Below, piece by piece: positions 15,017 through 63,294 of a DNA stretch of 64,000 bases. Position 1 is the stretch's first letter. Each line of letters opens with the position of its first letter. A program made the position numbers and the translations under genes. The stretch comes from Bacteroidia bacterium (GTDB lineage: Bacteria; Bacteroidota; Bacteroidia; SXHM01), in assembly GCA_050186075.1 (NCBI GenBank), contig JBFWYU010000004.1, positions 15,337-79,336 on the forward strand, given 5' to 3'. Below the pieces are notes generated by a model. It was not told where the DNA came from, ran no database searches, and worked only from the letters and a program-made list of their open reading frames with translations.

Positions 15017-15042
15017 ATATTGAAACATTCATAAAAGAAAAA

Positions 15043-15065
15043 GCCAGACGCGAGTCTGGCTTTTT
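15043..15065. terminator. Bidirectional rho-independent terminator
   Basis: gccagac-gcga-gtctggc 7-bp stem followed by ttttt and preceded by an A-run; lies between convergent nrdA and 15088..16146. Confidence 0.7.
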
Positions 15066-15087
15066 CTTTTATGATAGTCAAACAGAA

Positions 15088-21948: not shown

Positions 21949-21949
21949 T

Positions 21950-22640
21950 CTACCGGATTTTATCACAAAAGAACAACACAAAGTCCGAAGGACTTAAATA
22001 TGAATAACCCCGAATGCAATTCGGGAAAAAAAGCGGAGTTAACAACAACTCTAAAGGAGTTGAATAAAACAGTATGAGTACTTATACCCAAATAGTATAT
22101 CAAATAGTTTTCAGCACTAAGAACCGTGAACATACTCTTAAACCTGAAAGCAATAAAGATTTATACAAATACATTTGGGGTATATTAAAAAACAAAAAAT
22201 GTCATTTGTATCAGATAGGTGGTGTTGCTGACCATATTCATATTATAACTCATTTACATCCCTCCATAGCGCTTTCATCCTTGATTAAAGACATAAAACT
22301 GGCAAGTTCAGAGCACATAAAAAGTCATAATTTATTTCAAAACTTTTCAGGCTGGCAGGAAGGGTACGGAGCATTTACATATTCTATTAAAGATAAAGAC
22401 CGATTAATAGAATATGTAAAAAATCAGGAAGAACATCATCGAATAAAAACATTCAGAGAGGAGTATGTTGAATTGCTTAATGAGCATGGGATTGCATTCG
22501 ATGAGAAATTTCTTTTGTAATAACAATTCAACCACGTTGTGGTTGTTTTATATCTGCGTCATATAACCCCTGATTTCATCAGGGGTTATTCAAATTAAAT
22601 CCCTTCGGGATTTTTATAGAAGCTAGGCAGGATATTCTCT
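21950..22640 (+). mobile_element. Putative IS200/IS605-family element (tnpA only) with hairpin-rich ends
   Basis: Y1 transposase gene flanked upstream by hairpins (agtccgaaggact; cccgaatgcaattcggg) and downstream by three hairpins (caaccacgttgtggttg; ataacccctgatttcatcaggggttat; aaatcccttcgggattt). Exact ends not determinable from one copy. Confidence 0.4.
22074..22520 (+). CDS. tnpA: IS200/IS605-family Y1 (HUH) transposase TnpA, possibly a REP-associated tyrosine transposase (RAYT)
   Basis: 148 aa. HUH motif ADHIHIITHL; C-terminal catalytic Tyr context EYVKNQEEHH; size typical of TnpA_IS200. Confidence 0.7.
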   Translation: MSTYTQIVYQIVFSTKNREHTLKPESNKDLYKYIWGILKNKKCHLYQIGGVADHIHIITHLHPSIALSSLIKDIKLASSEHIKSHNLFQNFSGWQEGYGAFTYSIKDKDRLIEYVKNQEEHHRIKTFREEYVELLNEHGIAFDEKFLL

Positions 22641-22708
22641 AAAAGAGCACTAAAATTAATTCACATCAGAATCCCCTTATTCGTAATTTCGCACAGAATT
22701 TCCTCTCT

Positions 22709-23272
22709 GTGCTTATTACTCATCCTAAACTAACCAAACTTCTTCAACAGGCATACTCTGCTGAAAAAGCTGCTGCTTTTGCTTATCAGGGACATGCCGG
22801 TTCATTAAAAAGTAAAGAAGAAAAAGTTCCGGTTCGTCAGATTGAACTGGATGAATGGAAACACCGCGAAGAAGTATTGAAAATTATGAAACAGTACCAT
22901 ATTCCTGTTTCAAAGAAATATGAAGTTCAGTTTCATGTTATCGGCAAAACCATTTCGTTCAGTTGCTATGTTATCGGTTGGTTTATGCCTTATTATTTTG
23001 CAGGAAGACTGGAAAGCGGAAACGTGTGTGAGTATTTTGTGATGATCCATTATTTCCATGAATTAGGTATTTACGAGCATGACCAGATTTTATACGAAAT
23101 GGCTATCAAGGAAAAAGAACACGAGGTGTTTTTTCTTGAAAAAGTAAAAGGAAGTAAGTTGTTGCCTTTCTTTGAAAAGCTTTTTAACTGGGGAAAGAAA
23201 AGCAGTTTTAATGATGTTGATCTGGAAAACAAATTTCCGGTAGAACAATCGGATAATTATTGCAAGAGGTAA
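22709..23272 (+). CDS. Hypothetical ferritin-like (diiron-carboxylate) protein
   Basis: Two E-x-x-H motifs (ELDEWKHREE; EKEHEVFF) about 90 residues apart, with an intervening hydrophobic segment; no closer family assignment possible. Confidence 0.35.
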   Translation: MLITHPKLTKLLQQAYSAEKAAAFAYQGHAGSLKSKEEKVPVRQIELDEWKHREEVLKIMKQYHIPVSKKYEVQFHVIGKTISFSCYVIGWFMPYYFAGRLESGNVCEYFVMIHYFHELGIYEHDQILYEMAIKEKEHEVFFLEKVKGSKLLPFFEKLFNWGKKSSFNDVDLENKFPVEQSDNYCKR

Positions 23273-26606: not shown

Positions 26607-26640
26607 GTTATTTTTGAGCTATAACAGTTTATTATTTTTT

Positions 26641-26676
26641 AAATAACAATGCCCCTTAAACGGGGCATTGTTATTT
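26641..26676. terminator. Bidirectional rho-independent terminator (perfect 15-bp stem)
   Basis: aaataacaatgcccc-ttaaac-ggggcattgttattt flanked by a T-run upstream and A-run downstream; between convergent genes. Confidence 0.75.
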
Positions 26677-26725
26677 AAAAGAGTTTTAACTCATCAGCGT
26701 AACAACCTTTAGTGCTGCACTCTGC

Positions 26726-29763: not shown

Positions 29764-29821
29764 ATCCGCCTCAGGCGGACCGCTTAGCGCAAACGCATTG
29801 AACATTCAGCTGAGCGGGGCA
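29764..29821. repeat. Intergenic repeat family 2, copy C (hybrid with the GC hairpin of family 1)
   Basis: tccgcctcaggcggac-cgcttagcgcaaacgcattgaacattcagctgagcggggcag. Confidence 0.55.
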
Positions 29822-30935: not shown

Positions 30936-31169
30936 TGGTCGTTTGCTTTAATTGCCCATAACTTATCTATACCCGAAACCTTATTTCGCATATCCACACC
31001 CCCTTGGTTAGACTTGCGAAAATTTGGTGTTATTGCATAGCATTCTGTCAACAACATTATTAAAATTATTTTATAAATCAAATACCAACAGCAATTTGTT
31101 GCTGAGGAAATACGGCCTTATACCGTAGTTGTTAAGGATGCACAGAAAAAGTAAAAGTATGTACACAGA

Positions 31170-31421
31170 ATTATAATGTTTGCATATATACTTATAAACT
31201 ATGCCCGGAGATTTATAAAGTTTGCAGAGATACTTTTTAACTATGTATAGTCGTTTATAAAGTTTGCCTGCATACTTTTAAACTATGCATAAAGAATATA
31301 TAAGTATGCACGCTTAGTTGTAAACTATGCATACAGAATTATAAAGTTTGTGTGCAGAATTATAAACTATGTATGCAGAATTATAACGTTTGCACAAATA
31401 CTTATACTTTTTGCAAGCATA
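31170..31421. repeat. Array of 12 strictly phased 21-bp AT-rich direct repeats (iteron-like), alternating two subtypes
   Basis: Units start at 31170, 31191, 31212 ... 31401 (exact 21-nt spacing). Type A ttataaagtttgcNNNNNatac, type B ttataaactatgNNNNNagaa (42-bp super-unit x6). Confidence 0.8.
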
Positions 31422-31694
31422 CTTAACTAAAATGGCGGAAAAAGAAAAAGCTTTCTTCACAAACCTGTAAGCGTTGCGAAGAAAGCTTTAAACTCCGGCT
31501 GCCGGACTGCCGGCTAAAAATTATTAATTGATGATGAGTGAATAAGGTTGACTCCAATTGCCTGTTCCGTCTTTAGGGGTGGTTACCCTATGGCGAAAAT
31601 ACTGACGCGTTACCGGCTGCAAGCCTGCAACAGTTGTAGTTGCCTTTATAGTTGTTGGCAAAGGTTGCCAGTTAATACCATCACCTGATGTAGC

Positions 31695-32975: not shown

Positions 32976-32999
32976 CCGTATCGCCTGAGGCGATACGGA
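32976..32999. terminator. Rho-independent terminator downstream of the fasciclin gene (bidirectional stem-loop)
   Basis: ccgtatcgcc-tgag-ggcgatacgg 10-bp stem with T-rich tracts on both sides. Confidence 0.6.
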
Positions 33000-41722: not shown

Positions 41723-41732
41723 CTCTAAAAAA

Positions 41733-41758
41733 AGCAACCTTCACGGTTGCTTTTTTTA
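41733..41758. terminator. Rho-independent terminator after tRNA-Ala (also serves the convergent esterase gene)
   Basis: agcaacc-ttcac-ggttgct + ttttttt, preceded by aaaaaaa. Confidence 0.7.
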
Positions 41759-54959: not shown

Positions 54960-54999
54960 ATGATTAACCACTAAGAGCACTAAGATACACTAAGTTTCT

Positions 55000-55080
55000 C
55001 GTGATTGCGAGTCCGCCTCAGGCGGGCGAAGCAATCTCATAAATAATAAAGAGATTGCTTCGCTATCGCTCGCAATGACG
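55000..55080. repeat. REP-like nested palindromic intergenic element, copy 3 of 4
   Basis: cgtgattgcgagtccgcctcaggcgggcgaagcaatctcataaataataaagagattgcttcgctatcgctcgcaatgacg; preceded by a (cactaag)3 short tandem repeat. Confidence 0.7.
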
Positions 55081-63199: not shown

Positions 63200-63219
63200 T
63201 TGTTTGGTTTTTTAGTTTT

Positions 63220-63294
63220 CGTCATTGCGAGTCCGCCTGAGGCGGACGAAGCAATCTCACAATTAAAGATTGCTTCACTGCGTTCGCAATGACG
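63220..63294. repeat. REP-like nested palindromic element, copy 4 of 4 (overlaps the 3' end of a CDS)
   Basis: cgtcattgcgagtccgcctgaggcggacgaagcaatctcacaattaaagattgcttcactgcgttcgcaatgacg; encodes the last 7 codons and stop of the M20-like gene. Confidence 0.7.

Follow-up and report, generated by a model that had tools for sequence, protein, structure and literature searches.

A 64,000-nucleotide stretch of a Bacteroidia bacterium (GTDB lineage SXHM01; contig JBFWYU010000004.1 of assembly GCA_050186075.1), hereafter the window, in whose coordinates all positions are given, carries one gene for a Y1-type HUH endonuclease/transposase (the Y1 gene) enclosed by two mirror-image arms, each made of three small hairpins. 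The arms are conserved around homologous genes in other genomes, their stems covary, and they also occur dispersed without any gene; at this locus they lie in a block that is inserted relative to related genomes, and the gene has intact catalytic residues and is under selection. We propose that the locus is a gene-carrying copy of a system like those formed by repetitive extragenic palindromes (REPs), their hairpin-forming doublets (REPINs) and REPtrons, built in this case on a class-1 Y1 enzyme, a reading to which we assign a probability of about 0.6. The features of the locus are as follows.

21949 to 22669, no strand: inserted block of ~720 bp, comprising the arms, the gene and extra spacer of ~32 nt (left) and ~56 nt (right); from alignment A3 against empty sites.
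21977 to 22030, minus strand (read outward): left BA module, with hairpin B at 22009-22025, linker GTTATTCATATTT and hairpin A at 21981-21995; from covariance model R1 and nhmmer.
22046 to 22062, no strand: left hairpin C (CAACTC-TAAAG-GAGTTG), ending 11 nt upstream of the ATG.
22074 to 22520, plus strand: Y1 HUH endonuclease/transposase gene, assigned to TnpA_Y1 subclass 1.2; 148 aa, ATG to TAA.
22233 to 22241, plus strand: HUH motif codons H54-I55-H56, invariant in homologue alignment A1 and aligned with the HUH of IS608 TnpA.
22413 to 22427, plus strand: Tyr114 to Gln118 (YVKNQ), aligned with IS608 QYIENQ; the two histidines of the subclass 1.2 signature come next.
22529 to 22545, no strand: right hairpin C' (CAACCAC-GTT-GTGGTTG), 8 nt past the stop codon.
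22563 to 22616, plus strand: right BA module, with hairpin B' at 22563-22589, linker TCAAATT and hairpin A' at 22597-22613; from R1 and nhmmer.

The first-pass annotation of this DNA had described a 148-aa open reading frame (ORF) with an HUH motif and a C-terminal tyrosine context, and this description was borne out: HIH at residues 54-56, Y114 and Q118 all align with IS608 TnpA, and Pfam and NCBIfam agree. The protein matched Pfam Y1_Tnp with E=3e-22, the match being limited to residues 4-118 of its 148, and scored 66 bits against NCBIfam transpos_IS200 (cutoff 55), a cutoff exceeded by all 16 family members tested. Against REP_Tyr_transpos, the NCBIfam model for REP-associated tyrosine transposases (RAYTs), it reached 29.4 bits versus a cutoff of 80, which none of the 16 members tested attained. 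A profile search of PDB sequences returned IS608 TnpA as the best match (4.5e-6) and also ISDra2 TnpA; the E. coli RAYT (PDB 4ER8) was absent from these sequence-profile matches at E<=1. The resulting alignments pair DHIHI with DHIHIL and EYVKNQ with QYIENQ, which makes H54, H56, Y114 and Q118 the counterparts of the metal ligands and nucleophile of IS608 TnpA (H64/H66, Y127 and Q131 in IS608 numbering). An AF2 model of the protein (pLDDT 78.6) gave the same neighbours by fold: Foldseek placed the IS608 and ISDra2 TnpA structures at the top (about 2e-8) and 4ER8 in 30th rank (6e-6).

The Y114 codon (22413-22415) opens the string YVKNQEEHH, which reads as the subclass 1.2 signature Y-x3-Q-x2-HH (Y114-V-K-N-Q118-E-E-H121-H122). 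In alignment A1, Y114, N117, Q118, H121 and H122 are invariant, and residues 119-148 form a conserved, subclass-specific C-terminal segment (F127, E129, E130, L134, L135, F142, E144, K145, L147). On this signature, the conserved tail and the Bacteroidota origin, we assign the protein to TnpA_Y1 subclass 1.2; it is not a canonical member of either the IS200 TnpA or the RAYT group. A large protein collection held 4960 relatives, and the top 120 of them share 72-89% identity and are nearly all exactly 148 aa long; their sources label them 'IS200/IS605 family transposase' or 'RayT' interchangeably. The exact protein is known from a single genomic context. As had been noted at first pass, no tnpB lies near the gene, which sits between an acyl-CoA (AMP-binding) ligase gene and an unassigned ferritin-like ORF, with an NAD kinase gene also among its neighbours. 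No second HUH...Y ORF was found in the window, giving a Y1 copy count of one, and the defence models of PADLOC produced no match.

One candidate structure inside the coding sequence was set aside. A perfect 17-bp inverted repeat (22374-22390 and 22404-22420) spans the FTYSIK and LIEYVK codons around the catalytic tyrosine; it is not conserved, with a mean of 9.3 of 17 positions in 70 homologues, and is perfect in the exact-match contigs L001 and L002, which are from the same organism (L numbers denote individual loci and contigs throughout). It is probably a codon by-product in an AT-rich genome.

The flanks of the gene proved as rich in hairpins as first described, with six perfect stems (6 bp or longer) within 245 nt versus 0.19 expected from the rest of the window (Poisson P=6e-8). 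When they were folded as single-stranded DNA, z-scores ranged from -4.1 to -6.2, and 0 of 200 shuffles folded as well. Going outward from the gene, each arm of ~100 nt passes from hairpin C through a ~20-nt spacer, hairpin B and the linker CTATTCATATT to hairpin A. The left flank is an inverted repeat of the right one: 21980-22025 matches 22568-22613 over 46 nt with 76% complementarity, and a second inverted match joins 22044-22065 to 22526-22547. The stems differ in sequence between left and right while each local hairpin is retained, and we therefore rejected, for gene-carrying copies, a long-range pairing of left arm with right arm as the selected structure. Covariance model R1 recovered the left BA module at 62.1 bits (E=3.5e-13; nhmmer E=7.5e-8) and the right one at 63.8 bits (E=1.3e-13; nhmmer E=1.9e-9). 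Run with filters off over the 64-kb window, R1 found these two gene-flanking modules only, at 62.1 and 63.7 bits; its next match, at 15 bits, overlaps the right module.

The window, searched at E<=10, and 10 loci, searched at the gathering score, gave no Rfam match to the arms. A sigma-70 promoter scan of the arms found none, the scan being one that does not cover Bacteroidota promoters. Several of the hairpins fit a loose terminator pattern: C' (22529-22545) is followed by TTTTATATCT, and B and A fit on the minus strand. A further hairpin, GCACAGA-ATTTCCTC-TCTGTGC at 22691-22712, lies across the GTG at which the ferritin-like ORF starts; relatives without the Y1 insertion keep this hairpin, and it therefore belongs to the neighbour, not to the element.

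We then turned to homologous genes elsewhere, scanning one genome per species, which yielded at least 599 loci, and took the best 80 (L003-L082), which fall in Bacteroidota and further phyla, among these Verrucomicrobiota (including Akkermansia), Planctomycetota, Chlorobiota, Acidobacteriota and Balneolaceae. Simple hairpin detection revealed the same three-hairpin layout in most of the 80. Hairpin C, near the start or stop codon, has the family consensus ATTCAACCCC-TTCG-GGGGTTG; after a ~20-nt spacer comes hairpin B (CCnnnGG-TTTCA/TTGCA-CCnnnGG), followed by the linker CTATTCATATTnAA and hairpin A (nCCC-TTC-GGGn). The module consensus thus runs from a T-rich 5' flank through CC...GG to CTATTCATATT. 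It contains no GTAG guide tetranucleotide, and the comparison with the REP consensus that the first-pass annotation had called for found no GTAG at the hairpin foot. Perfect hairpins are concentrated beside the gene, at 12.2 per kb in the 130-nt flanks, 1.27 per kb more than 600 nt away and 0.62 per kb within the gene. Counts per locus rest on the 75 loci with adequate flanks: an equivalent of hairpin C lies 10-60 nt upstream of the ATG in 32, and a hairpin begins no more than 35 nt past the stop codon in 39.

Stems covary, and loops and linker stay constant. In an alignment of 80 B-linker-A modules (A2), 94.5% of cells are paired, double-sided changes number 247 versus 57±6 in shuffles, and pairing falls to 50% or less once partners are slid by one column. 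Because these modules had been picked by hairpin detection, we also applied a sequence-only nhmmer profile, which found the module in 67 of the 75 loci; in 61 it lay no more than 150 nt from the gene. By this profile 43 loci have an outward-pointing module downstream of the gene, 41 have one upstream and 30 have one on each side. Conservation spans the first C of stem B to the last T of stem A; within a genome, similarity among copies takes in hairpin C and ends 2-4 nt beyond hairpin A. Left-type and right-type arms have distinct, genome-specific B stems within a genome (L051, L043, L057), and the element's ends are therefore distinguishable. Outside Bacteroidota, the gene with recognisable arms was seen in Akkermansia metagenome-assembled genomes (L051, L075 and L082, including Akkermansia muciniphila), in other Verrucomicrobiota loci (L033, L056, L078, L079, L081) and in Gemmatales (L066); in L079 the arms stand as inverted doublets on both sides of the gene.

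Arms are also found in number without the gene. R1 gave 318 matches in the 446 kb of window and loci, and large arrays of arms adjoin the gene in L023, L040, L057, L013, L012 and L063. A metagenome scan with the pattern GGYTATTNNNRTTNRANCCNTTCNGG, which covers the linker and hairpin A, returned at least 120 loci. Among the 120 listed, a Y1 gene is present in 9, always 84-289 nt from the module, and absent from 111, 37 of which have at least 1.5 kb of sequence on both sides. Although B lies outside the search pattern, 83 of the 137 matches listed have a perfect B stem (5 bp or longer), and many others have one with a single mismatch. Adjacent modules are mostly oriented as they are around the gene (41 pairs among the matches listed), and in 28 of these 41 pairs the gap is 54-184 nt, about what remains after removal of the 447-nt gene; a few gaps of 543-607 nt are gene-carrying units. 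On inspection, gene-less doublets measure about 190-200 bp and run in the order A-B-C / C'-B'-A'. Some of them, L093 and L202 for instance, are able to fold into one long hairpin, and L148 retains a short remnant of an internally deleted gene; the doublets look like internal-deletion derivatives.

Large arrays adjoining the gene were mapped at 3004-3893 in L037, 905-2449 in L057, 2126-5432 in L023 and 1510-4945 in L040. Their periods are regular (349 nt in L037, about 150 nt in L057 and about 215-230 nt in L023), which suggests tandem amplification of arm pairs.

Comparison with related genomes indicates how the locus in the window arose. A close relative (Y1 protein 89% and ferritin-like protein 95-96% identical) has the order isochorismatase, AMP ligase, Y1, ferritin-like, NAD kinase, and the same block stands at the same site in L203-L207. 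In three more distant relatives (L209, L210, L211; ferritin-like protein 85-86% identical) the ligase stop is separated from the ferritin-like start by 42-47 nt with no Y1 gene. Judged from alignment A3, the ~720-bp block is an insertion in the window's lineage. It lies just after the ligase stop codon (GAATAA|), with a GATTAA-like string near the right junction; the junctions have diverged, as has, rapidly, the extra spacer inside the block, and the one filled-versus-empty comparison gave no clean target-site signature and leaves a fixed target or a duplication ambiguous. The hairpins are conserved around homologues elsewhere and arrived with the gene; they are not chance structures, nor are they mere terminators of the neighbouring genes, the concern raised with the original description.

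None of the loci L003-L082 shares the window's gene neighbours, and no conserved neighbourhood was found among them. These best 80 loci lie on 80 different contigs, and the loci with two copies (L040, L072) are local tandem duplications with 94.6% and 96.5% identity. The Y1 gene is under purifying selection: the ratio of nonsynonymous to synonymous substitution rates (dN/dS) is 0.165 between the window and its L203 orthologue (L203 4001-4447), where the neighbouring genes give 0.036-0.038, and 0.06-0.08 in three other species pairs. In the window-L203 comparison, dS is two to three times lower for Y1 (0.33) than for the ligase (0.94) and ferritin-like (0.65) genes; possible explanations are an exchange of the element at a later time, nucleotide-level constraint and the noise of a short gene.

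Judged by the example of IS608 TnpA and E. coli TnpA-REP, the Y1 protein would bind the arm hairpins when the DNA is single-stranded and would cut beside them through Tyr114, with the metal held by H54, H56 and Q118. Binding, the sites of cleavage and the choice of strand are all inferred. Rejoining of the cut ends could then move or copy arm-bounded segments, with the Y1 protein as the putative mobiliser of the arms. Across the family it is the arms that multiply, as solo arms, as tandem arrays beside the gene and as gene-less doublets, and the gene, itself under purifying selection, would remain close to a single copy in each genome.

The same locus could be viewed as an ordinary autonomous tnpA-only insertion sequence (IS) of IS200 type, moving by single-strand peel-and-paste transposition, with the gene-less doublets as its MITEs (miniature transposable elements with inverted repeats). 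This would sit well with transpos_IS200 scores above cutoff in 16 of 16 members, with IS608 and ISDra2 TnpA as nearest relatives in sequence and fold, with the insertion of the whole block relative to three relatives, with arm types that differ between the sides like the left end (LE) and right end (RE) of such elements, and with the internally deleted copy in L148. We nevertheless consider it unlikely, and the minimal IS200 offered as one option at first pass did not hold up. The ends here are mutually inverted, unlike those of IS200/IS605 elements with their same-strand LE and RE hairpins (PMC6006769), so the recognised hairpin versions would lie on opposite strands. The exact protein occurs in one context, the family is reported to be low-copy (PMC6006769), and among the best 80 loci two copies arise only as local tandem duplications. 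Moreover, between the window and L203 the gene keeps its synteny and evolves under purifying selection, and the inserted block extends past the arms. Still less probable is that the hairpins serve the gene and its neighbours purely as signals in RNA or transcription (terminators, read-through insulators or an IS200-like occlusion of translation) and have no role as DNA substrates. The loose terminator pattern of several hairpins and the closeness of hairpin C to the ATG (11 nt) would suit such signals, and IS200 itself uses a terminator hairpin and a hairpin that occludes the ribosome-binding site. REP hairpins, too, may down-regulate RAYT expression (PMC3733652). RNA signals, however, need neither mirror symmetry nor loops that complement each other (GAA in one arm, TTC in the opposite arm); the arms are met alone, in either orientation, in arrays and in doublets that lie far from Y1 genes; for the linker CTATTCATATT, conserved and single-stranded, no role in termination is obvious; and no Rfam family matches. 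Taken together, the mirror symmetry, the apparently low copy number, the selection and the spread without the gene count against both of these alternatives.

A fully domesticated host enzyme, for example one that processes single-stranded DNA at replication or repair, would also be expected to show strong conservation, and here the 72-89% identity and near-uniform 148-aa length of the top 120 of 4960 relatives, the low dN/dS, the apparently low copy number and the conserved segment 119-148 are all in keeping with it; the arms would then serve it as sites of regulation or loading, or be hitchhiking repeats with a preference for inserting nearby. We give this little credence. The best 80 loci share no conserved neighbourhood, and presence of the gene varies among close relatives, unlike that of an essential host function; patchy presence and lack of synteny both argue against it. 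In addition, the fixed outward geometry of the arms is the same in gene-less doublets, which points to a common origin as one unit and not to secondary insertions. The REPtron/REPIN-like reading that we prefer has several observations to contend with. Beyond the two at the gene, the window holds no arm, and dispersed members may be absent from this genome or lie outside the 64 kb; 8 of 75 homologue loci have no detectable module. The high pairing in A2 is partly by construction, and another enzyme could mobilise the dispersed arms. Finally, the inserted block exceeds the arms and shows no clean target signature, and may therefore have come by recombination or horizontal transfer and not by arm-bounded transposition.

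Other repeats in the window are distinct from the arms. A separate palindromic family with the core CCGCCTSAGGCGG occurs at 29766 (29766-29778), 32981 (32981-32993), 55013 and 63233, the core having six matches at no more than two mismatches versus 0.29 expected; its longer copies (54996-55046 and 63216-63266) are about 50-70 nt and 88% identical (TTCGTSATTGCGAGTCCGCCTSAGGCGGRCGAAGCAATCTCA). The first-pass annotation had suggested a link between the Y1 gene and a REP-like family of the window, which we took to be these palindromes, the sole candidate found. They do not match the arm model, and we rejected them as kin of the Y1 arms. No RAYT-like ORF was found in the window. An intergenic tandem array at 31133-31445, of ~15 units of 21 nt with a consensus near TATAAACTATGCATACAGAAT, looks like an iteron-like or binding-site array. 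Long perfect palindromes at 15029-15074, 26637-26680 and 41726-41758 resemble bidirectional terminators in style, with stems of 13-21 bp and outer arms rich in A/T, and the one at 41726 directly follows a tRNA T-arm-like sequence.

Taken alone, the window carries a modest message: it holds a real, intact, single gene-carrying copy, inserted between ligase and ferritin-like genes. A wider reading is that subclass 1.2 enzymes and their six-hairpin elements may constitute an unrecognised, multi-phylum REPIN/RAYT-like system that arose from IS200-type class 1 enzymes independently of the class 2 RAYTs, in which master genes persist and gene-less doublets and arrays proliferate. This would be a convergent second route to a 'domesticated' REP-generating enzyme; we advance it tentatively, judging the odds to fall a little short of even. 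The textbook example of a transposase that ceased to copy itself and maintains a family of short palindromes instead is the REP/RAYT system, and so far such systems rest on the class 2 branch of the Y1 family (class scheme of PMC6006769). If a class-1 enzyme has the same life-style, the transition occurred more than once. Such a system would also offer biochemistry a compact 148-aa enzyme with a well-defined composite single-stranded DNA substrate, would explain widespread intergenic hairpin repeats of Bacteroidota and their relatives for which we found no entry in Rfam or the literature, and would correct the interchangeable annotation of these proteins as 'IS200/IS605 family transposase' and 'RayT'.

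How the locus relates to known systems can be set out from the protein outward. Subclass 1.2 was characterised by the Y-x3-Q-x2-HH signature, a specific C-terminal domain, low copy number and the lack of typical IS200 end structures (Quentin et al. 2018, BMC Genomics 19:475; PMC6006769). The protein in the window resembles its members in that signature, in its short core with a conserved tail, in its apparently low copy number, in its Bacteroidota host and in being IS200-like by profiles; the difference is that here a conserved inverted three-hairpin arm flanks the genes and is also dispersed without them. That study sought REP-like sequences around class 2 and class 3 genes only, and nothing in its Table S1 resembles the linker or loop of the arms. 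In a non-exhaustive search of the literature (RAYT/REPIN, IS200, Bacteroidetes, TnpAY1, REP-like, Nezha MITEs), only PMC6006769 dealt with the protein subclass and no account of the arms was found. The subclass is already known, and what we did not find reported is its link to a conserved, dispersed family of three-hairpin arms. With the TnpA-only elements of the IS200/IS605 family (IS200, IS608, ISDra2) the locus shares the fold, the HUH/Y/Q set, the size, small subterminal hairpins, independence of tnpB and distinct end types. Those elements carry same-strand subterminal hairpins without terminal inverted repeats, whereas the ends here are mutually inverted, in the window and across the family, with three hairpins per end; apparently low copy number, vertical persistence and the subclass-specific HH motif and C-terminal tail further set the locus apart. 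IS200/IS605 elements also occur in multiple near-identical copies per genome and insert 3' of a fixed tetra- or pentanucleotide without duplicating the target; neither the window nor the contexts of the exact protein showed a further near-identical copy of the gene. TIRYTs and TIRtrons (Di Nocera et al. 2013; PMC3733652) likewise have a Y1 gene bounded by inverted repeats, some of them in small repeat families, but TIRYTs are RAYT-like class 2.1 proteins with helix-turn-helix tails, and their terminal inverted repeats have GGGGWSAS in common and are not built as triplets of hairpins.

The arms have a close parallel in REPtrons and RAYT-REPIN systems (E. coli TnpA-REP, PDB 4ER8; Pseudomonas REPINs; PMC3333891, PMC3116915), in which a single-copy Y1 gene lies between inverted palindromic units. 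These units spread as singlets, clusters and inverted doublets, and their sequences are genome-specific and match those at the gene. Inverted palindromic flanking units, as expected of a RAYT locus, are present at the Y1 locus too. Across the family the arms are likewise dispersed in these forms and have genome-specific stems, and in the window the only copies found are the two at the gene. The enzyme is nonetheless of class 1 (Y-x3-Q) and not class 2 (Y-x3-NP) and falls below the NCBIfam RAYT cutoff, so that the earlier suggestion of a domesticated RAYT stands only in part: by family it fails (29 bits versus 80, no Y-x3-NP, fold and sequence nearer IS608 and ISDra2), while a protein that works like a RAYT, with a REP-like family of its own, is the better reading. 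The repeat unit differs as well, being a three-hairpin composite of ~100 nt with a conserved AT-rich linker, as against the GTAG-tagged single hairpin of a REP. In contrast to REPtrons, the gene here lies inside the doublet, and the gene-carrying block has itself been inserted in the window's lineage.

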